A DNA stretch of 6,231 bases from a virus. Its lineage: Duplodnaviria; Heunggongvirae; Uroviricota; Caudoviricetes. Of the stretch, positions 1 through 5,419 are shown one piece after another (within the stretch, counting starts at the first letter, position 1; the number at the start of each line of letters is the position of its first letter). The DNA is taken from IMG/VR virus record IMGVR_UViG_3300029711_000132; one strand, written 5' to 3'. The notes beneath the pieces are model-generated. The model saw nothing but the letters and a program-made list of their open reading frames with translations. It was not told the origin of the DNA and made no database searches. Position numbers and translations under genes: made by a program.

Positions 1-30
1 TTTTTCCTCTGCTGTAAATGTTCGTCTCAT
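1..30 (-). CDS. insI: IS30 transposase, first 10 codons only (MRRTFTAEEK...), truncated by the window edge
   Basis: ATG at 30..28 on the minus strand, 62 nt inside the IS30 end; translation MRRTFTAEEK matches my recollection of the IS30 transposase N-terminus. Confidence 0.7.
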   Translation of the reverse strand, partial: MRRTFTAEEK

Positions 31-92
31 TCAAAAAACCTCCGCAACCCCATGTTTTCACATAACTGTTGCGTTGACCAATTGAATCTACA
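1..92 (-). mobile_element. IS30, left end only (element continues beyond the window start)
   Basis: Minus strand of 92..1 reads TGTAGATTCAATTGGTCAACGCAACAGTTATGTGAAAACATGGGGTTGCGGAGGTTTTTTGAATGAGACGAACATTTACAGCAGAGGAAAAA, which I recognise as the IS30 terminal inverted repeat followed by the start of its transposase gene. Recognition is from memory, not a search. Confidence 0.8.
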
Positions 93-343
93 GCGGCTTT
101 TTTTAATATGTCCCGTTCGTCGGTAACCCGTTTCAGCTCTTTCTGGAGACGGCGGATCTCGGCCTGAGCATCTGACTGTTCTTTATTAGTGGAAGAATCC
201 GGACCGTACTTCTTTATCCAGGCATAAAGGCTGTGGGTGGTGATATCGAGACGTGTTGCAACGCTGGCAACAGAATAACCGCGATCAACAACCTGTTTGA
301 CTGCTTCAGTTTTAAACTCTTCGGGATAACGCTTACCGCTCAT
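93..343 (-). pseudogene. IS3-family orfA (HTH transposase subunit), truncated by the IS30 insertion
   Basis: ATG at 343..341; translation MSGKRYPEEFKTEAVKQVVDRGYSVASVATRLDITTHSLYAWIKKYGPDSSTNKEQSDAQAEIRRLQKELKRVTDERDILKKAA has the IS3-family OrfA architecture (HTH then leucine-zipper-like region). The A-run slippery motif (A AAA AAA G) sits at 98-105, immediately before the IS30 junction. The native OrfA C-terminus and the orfB transposase are absent from the window. Confidence 0.7.
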
Positions 344-453
344 GGGCACCTCTCTTTAAGCCATCTTAAATGACTCTGAGGTGTCTGTTAAACCCGTGGC
401 GATTCATTCAATAGTTTTCCTTCTAAGCATCCTACAAAATCGGTGACGAGTCA
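93..453 (-). mobile_element. IS3-family insertion sequence fragment (IS150-like terminal repeat), interrupted by IS30 at 92/93
   Basis: Minus strand from 453 reads TGACTCGTCACCGATTTTGTAGGATG, resembling the IS150 end TGTACTGCACCCATTTTGTTGGACG (shared CACC-ATTTTGT-GGA pattern). About 110 nt of leader is followed by an orfA-type ORF. The exact outer boundary is uncertain. Confidence 0.6.
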
Positions 454-600
454 TGACCAGTTCACGTAGTGCAATGAAATTACTGCAATCTATTATGACG
501 CAAATGCGTCAATACTCGAATCAACTGATCATCCTGCCACGACTGAAATCTCAAATAGGCCGTTTCTCAAGTAAGAGATTTTGAATGCATTATTGGCTAC

Positions 601-630
601 TGAAATAAAAAACCCAGCGCCAACTGGGTT
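601..630 (-). terminator. Intrinsic terminator for the secreted-protein gene
   Basis: Minus-strand hairpin AACCCAG-ttggcg-CTGGGTT (611-630) followed by TTTTTATTT (601-610), 18 nt downstream of the stop at 648. The plus strand also has a T-run after the same hairpin, so it could act bidirectionally. Confidence 0.6.
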
Positions 631-647
631 CATATGAAATTTTTTTG

Positions 648-1142
648 TCATTTCCAATTGCAAGACTGTGAAATTTTTTCCACAACCTTATCAATCTCAG
701 ACAAGTCAAACTCAACTACTTGCATAGTTGATCCATAAGGTTCAAACCCAAAAATAGCTTTTTTATGCTTAGCCAAGGTCTTTATAAATTGTATTGGTTG
801 TGGAACAAATGCAGAATCACCGCCTTCCCCACCTCCCCAAACACTCTTGACCGGCTTTCCGCCATCTAACCGCACTGTAATTCTTGGGTTGTCCGACCCC
901 ATATAATCATTGAATGATAAATAGGCATCTGTTTTGTTATCACTACAACGCAACACCAGTGAAGTTGCACGATCAGTACCTGCTTTGTTATATGAATCTG
1001 GTGATAAATTAAGAGCCACAAAGTCAGTCTGGTCAGTCATTTTATTTATCTCAGACTTTGTTATCCACGGCCCTAACTTCTCTACACCAGCATTTGCTGT
1101 AAACGAGGCACTTATGACAAAGGCTAAAATAAATTTTCTCAT
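648..1142 (-). CDS. Secreted/periplasmic hypothetical protein (164 aa) with Sec signal peptide; accessory gene downstream of ren
   Basis: ORF with AAGGAG Shine-Dalgarno about 8 nt upstream of the ATG at 1142. N-terminus MRKFILAFVISASFTANA|GVEK is a classic signal peptide with an A-x-A cleavage motif. Two Cys (66 and 162) could form a periplasmic disulfide; Gly-rich segment WGGGEGGDS. Own terminator downstream. I do not recognise the family. Confidence 0.75.
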   Translation of the reverse strand: MRKFILAFVISASFTANAGVEKLGPWITKSEINKMTDQTDFVALNLSPDSYNKAGTDRATSLVLRCSDNKTDAYLSFNDYMGSDNPRITVRLDGGKPVKSVWGGGEGGDSAFVPQPIQFIKTLAKHKKAIFGFEPYGSTMQVVEFDLSEIDKVVEKISQSCNWK

Positions 1143-1172
1143 AACCCTATCTCCTTGGATTTAAAGAACTAA

Positions 1173-1178
1173 ATATTA
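1173..1178 (-). promoter_or_regulatory. Possible -10 hexamer (TAATAT) for an independent promoter of the secreted-protein gene
   Basis: Minus-strand TAATAT about 30 nt upstream of the ATG at 1142; the -35 is poor (TTTCTA). Speculative. Confidence 0.25.
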
Positions 1179-1288
1179 TCAAGTCTCTTGCCACTAGAAA
1201 ACCCACTTTATTTCCAAACTCTGACGGCATTCCTGAAAATCCGCTTCATACTCACTTGCCCCGCCCTATCATCCTGAGTAGCTAACCG

Positions 1289-1462
1289 TTAAACAAACGT
1301 TCGCCAGACCTTACCATCAATGACCAGGATTCCTGCCCGCGCCATTTTTGCCGCAGCCTGATTTATGCTGGTTAATGTCATACCTGTTGTCGCAGCAACG
1401 TCCGGCGCACAGAAGCTCTTGTGCGTCTCCAGATAATGAATAATTGCCTCTTTGCCCGTCAT
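1289..1462 (-). CDS. ren: Ren-like protein, truncated and divergent at the C-terminus (57 aa)
   Basis: ATG overlaps the P stop (GTATGAC). Translation MTGKEAIIHYLETHKSFCAPDVAATTGMTLTSINQAAAKMARAGILVIDGKVWRTFV* tracks lambda Ren (96 aa) up to KVWRT, then ends. Too short to appear in the supplied ORF track. Confidence 0.6.
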   Translation of the reverse strand: MTGKEAIIHYLETHKSFCAPDVAATTGMTLTSINQAAAKMARAGILVIDGKVWRTFV

Positions 1463-2163
1463 ACAGTTGCTCCTTTCAGTCCGAACTTCGCTTTGATTTC
1501 TGCGATCTTCGCCAGAGCCTGTGCACGATTTAGAGGTCTACCGCCCATGACAGGAAGTTGTTTTACTGGTTCAGGTATCGCCTCACCACGGTTAATTCGC
1601 GCGGTCATACAAGTCAGTTCATCGGCAGCCTTGCGCCGTAATTCCGCATCAGTCAGCGCATTGGCCCGCATGTTCTGATACAGGTTGGTAACCAACCAGT
1701 AGTGCGCGTTTGATTTCCATGGATAAGACTCTGCATCCGGATAAAGGCCACGCTTCCGGCAATACTCGTAAACCATATCAACCAGCTCGCTGGCGTTTGG
1801 CAGCCCGGCGTTAACGGATGCTTCTTCCCGGCACCAGGCGACAAACTGCCCGGGTGATGGCAGGAATGGTCGATTCTGCCGACGGGCTACGCGCATTCCT
1901 GCGTTAACCTGTTCCATTGTGGTGATCCCGTTTTCCCGGANNNNNNNNNNNNNNNNNNNNNNNNNNNNNNNNNNNNNNNNNNNNNNNNNNNNNNTAGCCA
2001 GGCTCGCCGGGAAAGTTGCCAGTAACTGGCTGAACACACCGTTGATGATCTGCGCTACCTGCTGTACCTGCGGCTTTTCGTCGTACTGTTCCGGCATGTT
2101 GTTGGCGATCCGGCGCATCTGCTCACGGTCAAAGTTAACCATCTGTGCGGCGATGTTTTTCAT
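1459..2163 (-). CDS. P: Replication protein P (DnaB helicase loader), lambda type
   Basis: Translation MKNIAAQMVNFDREQMRRIANNMPEQYDEKPQVQQVAQIINGVFSQLLATFPASLA...KAKFGLKGATV is essentially the lambda P sequence as I recall it. Start overlaps the O stop (ATGA). The N gap at 1941-1994 preserves frame length, but the 18-19 residues there are unknown. Confidence 0.93.
   Translation of the reverse strand: MKNIAAQMVNFDREQMRRIANNMPEQYDEKPQVQQVAQIINGVFSQLLATFPASLAXXXXXXXXXXXXXXXXXXXRENGITTMEQVNAGMRVARRQNRPFLPSPGQFVAWCREEASVNAGLPNASELVDMVYEYCRKRGLYPDAESYPWKSNAHYWLVTNLYQNMRANALTDAELRRKAADELTCMTARINRGEAIPEPVKQLPVMGGRPLNRAQALAKIAEIKAKFGLKGATV
1941..1994. other. Run of 54 N (assembly gap or masked bases) inside the P gene
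   Basis: Directly visible in the sequence. Confidence 0.99.
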
Positions 2164-3089
2164 AAATCCACCCCGTAAATCCAGTCAGTGTTTGTCAGGT
2201 CGAGTTTTGATTTTCCGGCTGTCACGCCAGCCTGTTGCTTGTTACGGTTGATTTCGAGTTGGGTCCACTTGTCGCGGAGTTTGGCCGGACTCAGCACGTT
2301 ACCTGACCAGAAGTTGTCCTGGCATGCCCAGCGGAACAGCACGCACATGTCGCGGTGGTTACGTCCGTCACGTTCACGCATCAGGCGGATATCGTTAGCC
2401 CACCCTGCAAAATTCGGTTTTCTGGCTGAGGGCGCGATGGTCTTCACCATGTCAAACATCCACTCTGCGGCGGTCAGGTCTTCTGCTGTCCCCCACTTGC
2501 TGCCGCTCTGAATTGCAGCATCCCGTTTCTCCACAGGAAAGTCGTTTTCTGGCTGGTCAGAGGATTCGCCAGAATTCTCGGACGAAAAAGGTTTTATATT
2601 GTCTTTTGTTAGTTTGTCTTTTGTGTTTACCTGATTCGGGTAAGTGCCTTTACCTGATTTGGGTAAACTTTTCTTACCTGATTCAGGTAAATTTACCTCT
2701 TTCAGGTAAACTTTATTTTTCTTACCTGATTCGGGTAATGTTGACCATTCACTGACCACATTATTAATGCCGATATTCCGCCCGCTCTGAATAAAAATCC
2801 CACGCTTTACCAGAACACTTTTTGCAGCAGAACACTTGTGCGGCAATATCCCGGTCAACTCGGAAAGTTGCTCGTTGCTCACCCAATCCAGTTTTTTATT
2901 AAAGCCATATGTTTTGCGCATGACAGCCAGGAAGACCAGAAGCTGGTGCTGTGTTAATCCGGCCAGCATCACAGCTTCCAGCAACTCATTTGCAATGCGC
3001 GTATAACCATCATCGAGATCTGCCACGCGCGGCTCCTTTTGTGCCGCATCCGGCACTGGAAAATTGAATATCTCAGCAGTGTTTGCCAT
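2160..3089 (-). CDS. O: O-family replication initiator (N-terminal iteron-binding domain, C-terminal P-recruiting domain)
   Basis: C-terminus ...KSKLDLTNTDWIYGVDL matches the lambda O C-terminus; N-terminus MANTAEIFNFPV...ADLDDGYTRIANELLEA...LRKTYGFNK aligns with lambda O MTNTAKILNFGR...ADLDDGYARLSNMLLEA. Start chosen at ATG 3089 (RBS GGGAGG 4-5 nt upstream), which aligns with the lambda O start. The longer ORF from 3179 overlaps the upstream stop as ATGA and cannot be excluded. Confidence 0.85.
   Translation of the reverse strand: MANTAEIFNFPVPDAAQKEPRVADLDDGYTRIANELLEAVMLAGLTQHQLLVFLAVMRKTYGFNKKLDWVSNEQLSELTGILPHKCSAAKSVLVKRGIFIQSGRNIGINNVVSEWSTLPESGKKNKVYLKEVNLPESGKKSLPKSGKGTYPNQVNTKDKLTKDNIKPFSSENSGESSDQPENDFPVEKRDAAIQSGSKWGTAEDLTAAEWMFDMVKTIAPSARKPNFAGWANDIRLMRERDGRNHRDMCVLFRWACQDNFWSGNVLSPAKLRDKWTQLEINRNKQQAGVTAGKSKLDLTNTDWIYGVDL
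2627..2738. repeat. Replication origin iterons: five copies of TTACC-N7-GGTAA inside O, with an adjacent AT-rich stretch (about 2585-2626)
   Basis: Copies at 2627-2643, 2650-2666, 2674-2690, 2693-2709 and 2722-2738 (e.g. TTACCTGATTCGGGTAA), each an inverted repeat. The AT-rich run GGTTTTATATTGTCTTTTGTTAGTTTGTCTTTTGTG follows on the downstream side in the direction of O transcription, as in lambda ori. The repeats encode the reiterated LPESGKK/LPKSGKG linker of O. Confidence 0.85.
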
Positions 3090-3175
3090 AATTCCTCCCG
3101 CAATGAGTGTGTTACGATTTGCACCTGAAAGTCGGTTCTGTTCCAGCAGACCGGCTTTCGCCATTTCTGAACCTG

Positions 3176-3715
3176 TCATATCGCCCCCAGCATGGTAGTA
3201 ACCATCGCCATCAATGGACCAGCCAGATCCGGGTCCACACGAAACATCGACACAATACCTTCACTCATTTCCTTCAGTTTCTGGTGGCGTGGTGCGTTGA
3301 GAATGACAGCCTGTTTTGCCTCACTGAGTTCCTTTTCCATTTCAGCCAACCTAGCCATGAAGCTATCCTGCTCAACCAGGTAACCGCGATATTCCAGCGG
3401 TAGTACCGCCAGAATTGCCGGGGTCAGTTCACGCACGTTATTTCGGTATTTTTCAGAATCGAATTTGTTATCGAGGAAGCGGAACAGCTTCTGGCGTGCA
3501 CGGCTGACATCATCAGGGAAATCGATGGTGCCGTCGCCCTGCTCCCGATACTCATTCACAATGAGTGCGGCAACGACATCCTGATTATCTACAGCCGACC
3601 AGGCGCGGACGGCATCACGGATTTTTTCGTGGCCTGGAGCTTGTTTTGTTTGAGAACGATTTATCACCGCAGTCGGAATAAATTCGCTAGTCTGTTGGTA
3701 TGTAAGTGGTTGCAT
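3176..3715 (-). CDS. YdaT-family protein in the cII position (putative lysis-lysogeny regulator)
   Basis: 179-aa ORF with strong RBS AAGGAG 6 nt upstream of the ATG at 3715, lying between cro and O where lambda has cII. No similarity to lambda CII; the segment LTPAILAVLPLEYRGYLVEQDSFMARLAE resembles what I recall of Rac/CP-933P YdaT. Family call is from memory and needs an HMM check. Confidence 0.7.
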   Translation of the reverse strand: MQPLTYQQTSEFIPTAVINRSQTKQAPGHEKIRDAVRAWSAVDNQDVVAALIVNEYREQGDGTIDFPDDVSRARQKLFRFLDNKFDSEKYRNNVRELTPAILAVLPLEYRGYLVEQDSFMARLAEMEKELSEAKQAVILNAPRHQKLKEMSEGIVSMFRVDPDLAGPLMAMVTTMLGAI

Positions 3716-3759
3716 AATTGACTCCTTTAGTTTGAATTGACTGTTAAGTTGATTGCTTA

Positions 3760-3772
3760 TTGTTAAAGAGCG
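3760..3772 (-). promoter_or_regulatory. boxA-like element (nutR position) in the cro-ydaT intergenic region
   Basis: Minus strand reads CGCTCTTTAACAA, 13 nt after the cro stop. This matches the boxA consensus (lambda CGCTCTTA; rrn TGCTCTTTAACAA) at the location where lambda carries nutR. No convincing boxB hairpin was found next to it. Confidence 0.35.
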
Positions 3773-3784
3773 TGAAATGGAAAT

Positions 3785-4015
3785 TTAAGCTGCGTTCTTT
3801 TCGGTGTGTGGAAACAACTTCGGAAGATCCGGACGAATCTGGTATGCCTTCACAACTCCACCAGTAGCCGTAACAATGCTGCCGACATGTTCAGGGGATA
3901 CCTTTGCTTTGTTGTGAAGCCACTTATAGACGGCCTGCTGTGAAACTTCGCAGGCATCGCCTAGTTTCTTTTGTGAACCAACGATATTGATCGCTGTTTT
4001 GATTGCTGGGTTCAT
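3785..4015 (-). CDS. cro: Cro-like small HTH regulator (Cro/CI-type, YdaS-like)
   Basis: 76-aa ORF transcribed divergently from the repressor gene, first gene of the early-right operon. GGAGG sits just upstream of the ATG. Sequence LGDACEVSQQAVYKWL is a helix-turn-helix signature. Confidence 0.8.
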   Translation of the reverse strand: MNPAIKTAINIVGSQKKLGDACEVSQQAVYKWLHNKAKVSPEHVGSIVTATGGVVKAYQIRPDLPKLFPHTEKNAA

Positions 4016-4119
4016 AACAACCTCCGCGGTTAATCCGAATCAAGATTAAAACTATGGTTGTTTTTAGTCAACAACCATTTTCGTTTGATGAAATAAAACC
4101 TTGGTTGTACATTTGATCT
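4016..4119. promoter_or_regulatory. OR-like divergent operator/promoter region between cro and cI
   Basis: Inverted repeat ATGGTTGTT-N7-AACAACCAT (4044-4068) plus a related half-site CTTGGTTGTACA (about 4099-4110). Candidate pR on the minus strand: -35 TTGACT (4061..4056). Candidate pRM on the plus strand: -35 TTGATG (4085-4090), 17-nt spacer, -10 TACATT (4108-4113), ending 7 nt before the cI ATG with no Shine-Dalgarno, i.e. a possibly leaderless cI mRNA as in lambda. Confidence 0.55.
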
Positions 4120-4809
4120 ATGAAAACAACACTCTCAGAAAGACTTAAAGAAGCCAGATTAGCGCGAGGCCTTACACAAAAGGCGCTTGGGGATTTGGTC
4201 GGGGTTAGCCAGGCTGCTATTCAGAAAATCGAAACAGGGAAAGCTAACCAAACAACTAAAATCGTGGAGATCGCGAACGCTTTGGGTGTACGCGCAGAAT
4301 GGTTATCTTCTGGCGTTGGAAATATGTCAGACAGTACAGTGCAACCAATACAATCAACTGTCAGCCATTCCAAATACTTCAAAATTGACGTTCTTGATAT
4401 AGAAGTCAGTGCCGGGCCAGGTGTAATCAACCGTGAGTTTGTAGAAGTTCTACGCTCGGTTGAGTACTCGTTTGACGATGCTCGTCACATGTTCGATGGC
4501 AGGAAGGCGGAAAATATCCGCATCATTAACGTGCGAGGTGACAGCATGTCAGGGACGATCGAACCAGGTGACCTGCTGTTCGTTGATATCACTGTTAAAT
4601 CTTTCGACGGTGATGGCATCTATGCGTTTCTGTACGACGACACTGCCCATGTAAAACGTCTTCAAATGATGAAGGATAAGCTGCTGGTTATCTCTGATAA
4701 CAAGAGCTACTCGCCGTGGGACCCGATCGAGAAAGACGAGATGAACCGGGTGTTCATATTCGGTAAGGTCATTGGAAGCATGCCGCAGACGTACAGGAAG
4801 CATGGTTAA
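4120..4809 (+). CDS. cI: CI-like prophage repressor (N-terminal HTH, C-terminal LexA/S24-type autocleavage domain)
   Basis: 229-aa ORF. N-terminus LTQKALGDLVGVSQAAIQKIETGK is an HTH; Ala-Gly candidate cleavage site in EVSAGPG (residues 98-99); catalytic Ser in RGDSMSGTIEPGD and Lys in AHVKRL. Divergent from cro across the operator region. Confidence 0.9.
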   Translation: MKTTLSERLKEARLARGLTQKALGDLVGVSQAAIQKIETGKANQTTKIVEIANALGVRAEWLSSGVGNMSDSTVQPIQSTVSHSKYFKIDVLDIEVSAGPGVINREFVEVLRSVEYSFDDARHMFDGRKAENIRIINVRGDSMSGTIEPGDLLFVDITVKSFDGDGIYAFLYDDTAHVKRLQMMKDKLLVISDNKSYSPWDPIEKDEMNRVFIFGKVIGSMPQTYRKHG

Positions 4810-5038: not shown

Positions 5039-5419
5039 ATGAGAAAAATCCTAATCGCTGCCATGATGGCATCTGTATTGGCTGGGTGTGCTTCTTCAGG
5101 CAACCAGCAACTCAAAAATGAAACTGAAATTAGTGTCCAGTCTAAACTTCAGGAAGGTAAAACAACCAAGAATGAGGTTAAATCTTACTTTGGTTCTCCT
5201 GATGCTGTTTCATATACTGACAGTGGAAACGAGATCTGGAAGTACGCCTTTGCAAAAGTAAAAGTGAATGGCACCACTTTTATTCCATTCTATGGATTAT
5301 TCCATAATGGAACGAACGGTACGAAAAAAGAACTTACTATTCTTTTTAACGATGACACGATTAAGAAATACACAATGTCAGAAACCCAAATAAACTCGAA
5401 ATCAGGTTGGGCTGACTGA
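5039..5419 (+). CDS. Predicted outer-membrane lipoprotein with BamE-like (SmpA/OmlA-type) domain; accessory gene in the rex position downstream of cI
   Basis: 126-aa ORF. N-terminus MRKILIAAMMASVLAGC has a lipobox (LAGC, Cys17) with Ala at +2, predicting outer-membrane sorting. Mature part EGKTTKNEVKSYFGSPDAVSYTDSGNEIWKY...KKELTILFNDDTIKKY parallels the E. coli BamE pattern GMTQQQVAYALGTPL...NTWFYVF...QQTLTLTFNSSGVL as I recall it. Weak RBS (GGAA about 8 nt upstream); strong terminator downstream. Confidence 0.8.
   Translation: MRKILIAAMMASVLAGCASSGNQQLKNETEISVQSKLQEGKTTKNEVKSYFGSPDAVSYTDSGNEIWKYAFAKVKVNGTTFIPFYGLFHNGTNGTKKELTILFNDDTIKKYTMSETQINSKSGWAD

Follow-up and report, generated by a model that had tools for sequence, protein, structure and literature searches.

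The locus considered here raises the question of what a gene for a small exported protein is doing in the replication region of a lambdoid prophage, at a place where ren of phage lambda is followed by ninB with no gene between them. The window, that is, the whole stretch of 6,231 nucleotides that was analysed, comes from a lambdoid (DLP12-like) prophage, whose immunity and replication region it represents; most of it is read on the minus strand. The S24 cI-like repressor gene (4120–4809) is on the plus strand. On the minus strand there are a cro-like gene (3785–4015), a gene for a YdaT-domain protein in the cII position (3176–3715), O (2160–3179), P (1459–2163), a ren pseudogene and, in the ORF list, a gene of 164 codons (648..1142, with the ATG at 1142–1140 and the TGA stop at 650–648). 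An Rfam scan of the whole window yielded no match.

Several plus-strand ORFs overlap the 164-codon frame, among them one at 934..1164 (76 aa). They were rejected, as conservation and the family matches are all in the minus-strand frame. The product of the latter matches the phage protein family PHROG 1848, its relatives (54–80% identity) share 44 invariant alignment columns, and it is found in 84 E. coli genomes and 110 viral contigs. Hence, judging from conservation, the ORF at 648..1142 is a real gene, and a chance ORF is ruled out.

The N-terminus of the protein, MRK-FILAFVISASF-TANA|G, is arranged in n-, h- and c-regions as in a Sec signal peptide: a basic n-region, a hydrophobic core and an AxA site. 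The predicted signal peptide comprises codons 1–18 (MRKFILAFVISASFTANA; 1089..1142, minus strand), with the cut at ANA|G. Although the sequence of this segment varies, its layout is retained in all 25 of the 25 relatives considered. A lipoprotein was considered and ruled out: the protein lacks a lipobox, and its predicted cut is at an AxA site. No further hydrophobic segment is present in the protein beyond the signal peptide. The predicted mature periplasmic domain, residues 19–164 (651..1088, minus strand), is mainly beta with two helices and bears the Gly-rich loop W102-GGGEGGD-S110; the protein has exactly two cysteines, C66 and C161. The signal peptide, the two cysteines and the Gly-rich loop described in the initial annotation are thus all present, and, as far as its sequence tells, the product is exported by the Sec route and becomes, after cleavage, a soluble protein of about 16 kDa in the periplasm.

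It had been suggested that the acquired segment spans 601–1288 and that homology to lambda ends where the ren ORF is cut short. The ORF (1462..1289) indeed ends after codon 57: in the alignment with lambda, the TAC of codon 58 is replaced by TAA, and a 1-nt deletion lies beyond it. However, the homology does not end there and continues for about 70–90 nt as decayed ren, to about 1198–1218, so that the pseudogene as a whole occupies 1198..1462 on the minus strand. In a blastn comparison with 152 lambdoid phage records, ren homology (query positions 1–253) reaches window position 1218; aligned pairwise with lambda, the sequence can be recognised to about 1198. The end of homology corresponds to approximately codons 82–88 of the 96 codons of lambda ren. 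RefSeq labels the longer ren span as "protein ren, frameshifted; internal stop". At the end of the homology the GC content steps from 52% (1218–1288) to 33% (1143–1217). This junction is situated about 55–75 nt upstream of the ATG of the 164-codon gene. At the other side, the window diverges from phage IdasGreatGrand at position 570. Given the end of ren homology, the GC step and this divergence, the acquired AT-rich cassette is assigned to about 570..1217 (minus strand) rather than to 601–1288.

The gene had also been described, by eye, as richer in AT than the flanking DNA, and the counts agree with that. Its GC content is 39.2% and its GC3 is 32.7%, whereas in the neighbours (ren, P, O, the gene in the cII position, cro and cI) these values are 47–54% and 47–58%, respectively; over 601–1217 the GC content is 38%. 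The contrast is general: across all 34 non-redundant viral loci, the GC content is 39–45% in the gene and 47–56% in the flanks, the gap being 5–16 GC points.

The gene is provided with signals of its own on both sides. A Shine-Dalgarno sequence AAGGAG is read directly at 1151..1156 (minus strand), with 8 nt between it and the ATG at 1142, as expected from the strong ribosome-binding site noted earlier, and it falls within a block of DNA that is homologous to copies of the gene located in phage tail modules (see below). Further upstream, comparison of loci yields a candidate extended -10 element, TGATAATAT (TG-n-TAATAT; 1173..1181, minus strand), with a weak -35-like TTTCTA at 1200-1195 and a spacer of 16 nt between the two. 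A standard consensus scan calls no promoter upstream of the gene. The relatives in other prophages have a similar block about 40 nt before the ATG, reading CTGnTAGGAT, GGGTAGGAT or TTTAGGAT, compared with CTTGATAATAT in the window. The T-A..A-T columns of this TGnTA(A/G)(G/T)AT block are invariant in the cross-context alignment, and the strict pattern is matched in 20 of the 34 non-redundant viral loci. The conserved block resembles an (extended) -10 element accompanied by a poor -35 element, and it may have promoter activity.

Downstream of the gene, the scan yielded a hairpin (631..610, 9 bp, loop of 4) followed by a T-run, together an intrinsic-terminator-like element at 601..631 on the minus strand. 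Taken alone the hairpin has little strength, with dG of -12.2 kcal/mol and z of -1.5. However, a homologous hairpin, AAACCCAGC-ACTC-GCTGGGTTT, with a T-run is found downstream of the 80%-identical tail-module copies, and a hairpin with a T-run is situated within about 60 nt downstream of the gene in 30 of the 34 non-redundant viral loci. The intrinsic terminator proposed initially is thus retained as a predicted one, and the case for it rests better on conservation in other phages than on the fold of the hairpin.

The gene is rare. It is carried by 84 of 5426 E. coli genomes (1.5%), and among 185,579 species-representative genomes only three have a close relative, these three loci being too few for a census of genomic contexts. 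In the IMG/VR collection, 110 viral contigs contain a relative of the gene. Two unrelated slots are seen among the best 80 of these 110 contigs. The 41 near-identical E. coli copies, with at least 98% identity, all come after P and ren, whereas most of the 39 copies with 55–80% identity have a DUF6246 tail-chaperone-like gene on one side and the tape-measure gene on the other. The E. coli copies agree with the former arrangement, always being situated behind P and the ren pseudogene and ahead of nin-region genes. The relatives from Klebsiella (55% identity) and Pantoea (58–59%) occupy the latter, DUF6246/tape-measure slot, in the tail module of a siphophage of a different type. More distant versions (26–28% identity) follow ogr where P2-like prophages end, and distant versions are also present in Pasteurella and Brucella phages. 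Every member of the clade that was sampled, with identities of 54–99%, is carried by a prophage; the sample comprises 84 E. coli genomes, 80 viral contigs and chromosomes of Klebsiella and Pantoea. The initial annotation had named, as evidence against its own reading, a confident match to a housekeeping periplasmic protein family with no link to prophages, and no such match emerged. The close copies differ by 1–3 nt within the gene, too few to inform on selection.

The lambdoid and the tail-module copies can be aligned as DNA from the Shine-Dalgarno sequence through the T-run of the terminator (window 1156..604), with 77–79% identity. Together with the conserved -10-like block, this homology indicates that the cassette appears to move as a whole. 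At the level of sequence it has features by which a moron, as defined for HK97 and HK022, is recognised: it is extra DNA compared to related phages, has a different base composition and carries its own terminator. Since the base composition contrasts with the flanks, the gene has its own Shine-Dalgarno sequence, terminator and -10-like element, there is nothing at this position in lambda, and a homologous unit occupies a second slot, the segment is very probably a moron, a mobile and self-contained transcription unit of about 0.65 kb of Enterobacterales temperate phages, consisting of a -10-like element, a strong Shine-Dalgarno sequence, one gene and a terminator. On the same reading, insertion of the cassette into a lambdoid (DLP12-like) prophage would have cost ren its 3' end, and what was left of that gene would have decayed afterwards. 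The initial proposal of a horizontally acquired moron with a Sec-exported product is therefore upheld as far as sequence can tell.

The tail slot has a precedent. The original moron, gene 15 of HK97, is a superinfection exclusion gene in the slot between the chaperone and tape-measure genes, and it is the case for which the word moron was introduced (PMC3594210). The two cases share an AT-rich insertion with its own signals and an envelope-targeted product (a predicted one in our case), and the relatives of the 164-aa protein use the same tail slot. The proteins, however, have no kinship in sequence or fold: HK97 gp15 is a small YebO-like inner-membrane protein, while here a soluble, mainly-beta periplasmic domain of about 146 residues is predicted. 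Exclusion activity has been shown for gp15; for the 164-aa protein we infer it.

The initial annotation could not assign the protein to any family. In fact it belongs to PHROG 1848, which it matches over the full length (E=2e-70, positions 1–166 of 166) and which carries no functional annotation. The Pfam family PF11319 (VasI) is matched at 25.5 bits (E=1.2e-5; profile positions 78–184 of 184), one bit under the gathering threshold of 26.5. The same family is matched by 47 of 51 wider relatives, and precomputed PF11319 matches exist for most relatives with 54–80% identity. [quoted passage not shown] A profile search against 1.84 billion cluster representatives retrieved 3,835 clusters at E<=0.001, including 1,232 at E<=1e-10; the VasI/TagO-IalB superfamily, clustered at 50% identity, thus numbers 3,835 clusters or more.

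The signature of this superfamily consists of W26, D37, R65-C66, T71, R91, D93, W102, F112, P135-Y136, F145 and C161-x-W163, and the 164-aa protein has 14 of the 14 residues. Each of them is the majority residue in 76–100% of about 138–149 representatives (taken from the 150 best), all but Y136 in at least 87%. Both cysteines are invariant among the 150 best superfamily representatives; from this co-conservation, C66 and C161 probably form a disulfide that ties the C-terminal helix to the sheet. The hhalign match and the conserved residues make domain homology to VasI secure, and the 164-aa protein is a divergent, core-only member of the VasI/TagO-domain family (PF11319) with an IalB-like fold, the latter being described below. 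RefSeq names the identical gene TagO. No match was found among the PADLOC defence models.

In sequence databases, the 90%-identity cluster that holds the 164-aa protein is represented by a sequence named "Replication protein P", which is a clustering artefact. Because of it, the first homology search contained no full-length copy of the protein at about 100% identity.

The name TagO suggests a T6SS component, and a tie to the T6SS has to be considered. The protein could be an accessory subunit that modulates the T6SS of the host, or a decoy or shield against an incoming T6SS attack. The domain is homologous to VasI of T6SS clusters, and both proteins are periplasmic, the one considered here by prediction. 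Besides, the T6SS and phage tails are related machines. However, the T6SS-specific model TIGR03360 gives the 164-aa protein only 13.6 bits, with the cut-off at 124.2, whereas VasI of EDL933 (EDL933_RS01165), encoded between tssA and tssH, scores 257.4; other non-T6SS relatives score 23–76 bits. The identity to EDL933 VasI is 18% (BLASTP E=0.055). The likeness to VasI/TagO (EDL933_RS01165 and VCA0118 of V. cholerae) comprises the C-terminal domain, the signature residues, the signal peptide and, as predicted here, the periplasmic location. The differences are no less clear. The canonical VasI is about 200–250 aa long and has an N-terminal Cys...RLxCYD module, whereas this module is absent from the 164-aa protein and its close relatives, in which the mature protein opens with the core domain. 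The consensus loop W-x-x-S-T-D is replaced by W-GGGEGGD. On the other hand, the version from a P2-like phage has three copies of the Cys...RLxCYD module. Elsewhere, a Zn-ribbon membrane protein is encoded next to VasI domains or fused to them and is a candidate partner.

The genomic context points in the same direction. The neighbours are ren, P, O and nin-region genes, and there are no T6SS genes near the 164-codon gene or any of the relatives examined, the phage version being prophage-encoded and never adjoining T6SS genes. The latter holds also for five distant PF11319 relatives, sampled randomly as to context: none of the five is in a T6SS locus, although two of them are named VasI or TagO by their sources. 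Hence, for much of the superfamily, the T6SS name should not be relied on. Even for VasI itself, a 2026 review lists the molecular activity, and with it the role in the T6SS, as unknown (PMC13584744). The identity as a T6SS component was rejected on the TIGR03360 score, the absence of T6SS neighbours and the location of every close relative in a prophage; judged by these data, the gene is prophage cargo and not a working part of a T6SS. We consider any modulating, decoy or shielding role with respect to the T6SS very improbable.

The fold suggests other comparisons. The AlphaFold2 model, built with 25 relatives, has pLDDT of 84.9 and pTM of 0.80, pLDDT falling below 50 only at residues 1–17, that is, in the signal peptide. 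The best structural match of the model is IalB of Bartonella henselae (PDB 3dtd), with 9–11% sequence identity. The IalB Pfam model (PF06776) has no match to the 164-aa protein itself, and the search of PDB sequences with this protein gave nothing below E=0.1. A weak sequence link between the VasI and IalB models is also seen in the relatives. The modelled fold also resembles what is probably the N-terminal domain of MotY (8z5n, flagellar motor ring), a protein of the flagellar T ring.

The resemblance to IalB suggests that the gene may be a host-fitness or virulence conversion factor acting at the envelope, in its integrity, in adhesion, in invasion, or in resistance to serum or stress. Such factors are known from lambda itself, Bor and Lom being the analogues. 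IalB is associated with erythrocyte invasion by Bartonella, the arrangement as a moron implies that the lysogen gains from the gene, and the carriers of the gene include STEC, ETEC and clinical isolates. Further, RgsG of Sinorhizobium, which has an IalB domain, is essential, periplasmic, located at the growth pole and linked to Tol-Pal (PMC7327166). At the same time, the carriers also come from soil, sludge, frogs and crayfish and include a phage isolated from mud, with no pathotype pattern. The identity to IalB is low, and as the mechanism of IalB is not known, the analogy predicts nothing specific. IalB is, moreover, the product of an alphaproteobacterial chromosomal gene and is reported at the inner membrane, whereas here the gene is of a prophage and the product is predicted to be periplasmic. 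Finally, the same fold occurs in phages that we take to be virulent, which is hard to square with virulence towards the host. On these grounds a conversion function seems unlikely.

The phages in question were retrieved by Foldseek from BFVD. They are RB16, KP15 and Aeromonas phage 65.2, which are T4-like, and Vibrio phage VH7D; all these T4-like and other phages are presumably virulent, and all matches are to uncharacterised phage proteins. Since the fold is present in such phages, a role in the infection cycle of the phage itself is possible, and the protein could be a periplasmic factor of the lytic cycle, made by read-through from pR (in the tail-module copies, from the late operon) and acting in lysis, in a block of re-adsorption or re-injection, or in conditioning of the envelope. 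During its lytic growth T4 produces Sp and Imm, which are exclusion proteins of the periplasm and membrane. The orientation of the gene fits this reading, as it is co-oriented with the early rightward operon here and with the tail operon in other phages, and expression by read-through alone is thus possible. However, the gene has a conserved -10-like element in front and a terminator immediately behind, which are traits of morons expressed from the prophage and not of operon genes. The gene is also dispensable, being missing from lambda and most lambdoid phages, and its occurrence in E. coli genomes is low. A function in the lytic cycle of the phage therefore appears rather improbable.

Overall, the best explanation, and on balance a probable one, is a moron with a role at the level of the cell envelope. 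In the lysogen the gene would be transcribed from its own weak sigma-70 promoter, with additional read-through from pR during lytic growth. The product would then be exported and oxidised in the periplasm. The relatives in fold, that is, IalB, RgsG, VasI and probably the N-terminal domain of MotY, are all small periplasmic proteins, none of which has a known enzymatic activity. Several of them have a physical or genetic tie to an envelope-spanning machine, which is Tol-Pal for RgsG, the flagellar motor ring for the component of 8z5n and, through its gene clusters, the T6SS for VasI. For this reason we regard binding or scaffolding as the task of the 164-aa protein, which may act, in a non-enzymatic way, on a structure that spans the envelope.

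The role that we favour is superinfection exclusion or protection of the envelope, in which the protein would block the tail tip or the tape-measure channel of an incoming phage or a tail-like injector. Three considerations lead to it: the gene is carried as a moron by temperate phages, its relatives occupy the slot of the HK97 exclusion gene, and the predicted compartment is the one crossed by incoming tail tips and tape-measure proteins. An analogue is Sim of P1, a periplasmic protein. As a specific mechanism, exclusion or protection at the envelope is tentative, a possibility suggested by these analogies.

The gene itself is not new to databases, being present there as TagO in RefSeq and as a member of PHROG 1848, and the cassette is an ordinary moron with a gene of no assigned function. 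The main value of its description is in correcting a misleading T6SS annotation and in giving a tractable entry to a large superfamily. A literature search for PF11319, prophage TagO, VasI/VCA0118 and the RefSeq accession returned no functional reports, and no description of a mechanism was found for the VasI/TagO and IalB families. More speculatively, and with doubts that we would not hide, the core-only proteins of phages with the VasI/IalB fold, namely PHROG 1848 and its relatives in P2-like and other phages, may form a widespread, unrecognised class of periplasmic exclusion factors. They would bind the tip or the tape-measure channel of tail-like injectors (phages and possibly T6SS spikes) and stop their passage through the periplasm; should this be true, it would provide the VasI/TagO-IalB superfamily with its first molecular function. 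The version from E. coli phages, a single domain of 146 residues that may be expressed autonomously, offers a convenient handle on what the VasI/IalB fold binds. The cassette is also a clean case of one moron that is found, together with its signals, both in the slot of a tail operon and in the lambdoid nin region.

The family name VasI/TagO exaggerates the link of the 164-aa protein's family to type VI secretion. None of the five sampled loci carrying distant relatives that match PF11319, the Pfam VasI/TagO domain (L013, L014, L015, L016 and L017), contains a T6SS gene cluster around the matching gene: one relative has transposase genes as neighbours, another belongs to a P2-like prophage, and the other three are surrounded by unrelated chromosomal genes. 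At that, two or three of these five relatives, all outside T6SS loci, bear the name VasI or TagO in the source records.

The VasI-domain genes of P2-like prophages (regions 3235–4465 of locus L004 and 9664–10897 of locus L015) encode proteins in which the core domain is accompanied by a signal peptide and three Cys...RLxCYD repeats. The gene directly 5' of them encodes a Zn-ribbon membrane protein, and in other organisms a single fused protein combines the VasI domain with a Zn-ribbon and a transmembrane segment. Taken over the two loci and the proteins P0066 and P0074, this arrangement suggests that the Zn-ribbon membrane protein and the VasI domain are functional partners, the putative partnership being absent from the lambdoid cassette.

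In the 90%-identity protein collection, the 164-aa protein (648–1142, minus strand) is grouped with 233-aa sequences annotated as "Replication protein P", one of which is the cluster representative. This co-clustering is evidently an artefact, and it masked full-length identical copies of the 164-aa protein in the homology search on this collection. The replication gene P of the window is itself broken by 54 N at 1941–1994; these are masked or unsequenced bases and no biological feature.

The ren gene (1198–1462, minus strand), as seen from the comparison with lambda, is a pseudogene: codon 58 is TAA in the window and TAC in lambda, a 1-nt deletion follows, and the cassette stands in place of the final 8–14 codons, approximately. 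The product of the gene in the cII position (3176–3715, minus strand) matches the YdaT_toxin domain (PF06254, 102.9 bits) and is not a lambda-type CII.

The gene for the cI-like repressor is closely followed by a second AT-rich single-gene insert (5039–5419, plus strand, GC 38%). This insert encodes a 126-aa lipoprotein with the lipobox LAGC, whose BamE domain score, 21.8 bits, is below the cut-off of 23.2 bits. As a different gene, of 313 aa, occupies this slot in E. coli STEC1590, the insert marks a further variable moron position.

Finally, the end of an insertion sequence occupies window positions 1–404, about 200 nt 3' of the cassette terminator. Its partial orfA (2–352, minus strand) matches the HTH_Tnp_1 domain and has thousands of near-identical copies in E. 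coli, annotated as "transposase". The corresponding site in STEC1590 is uninterrupted.
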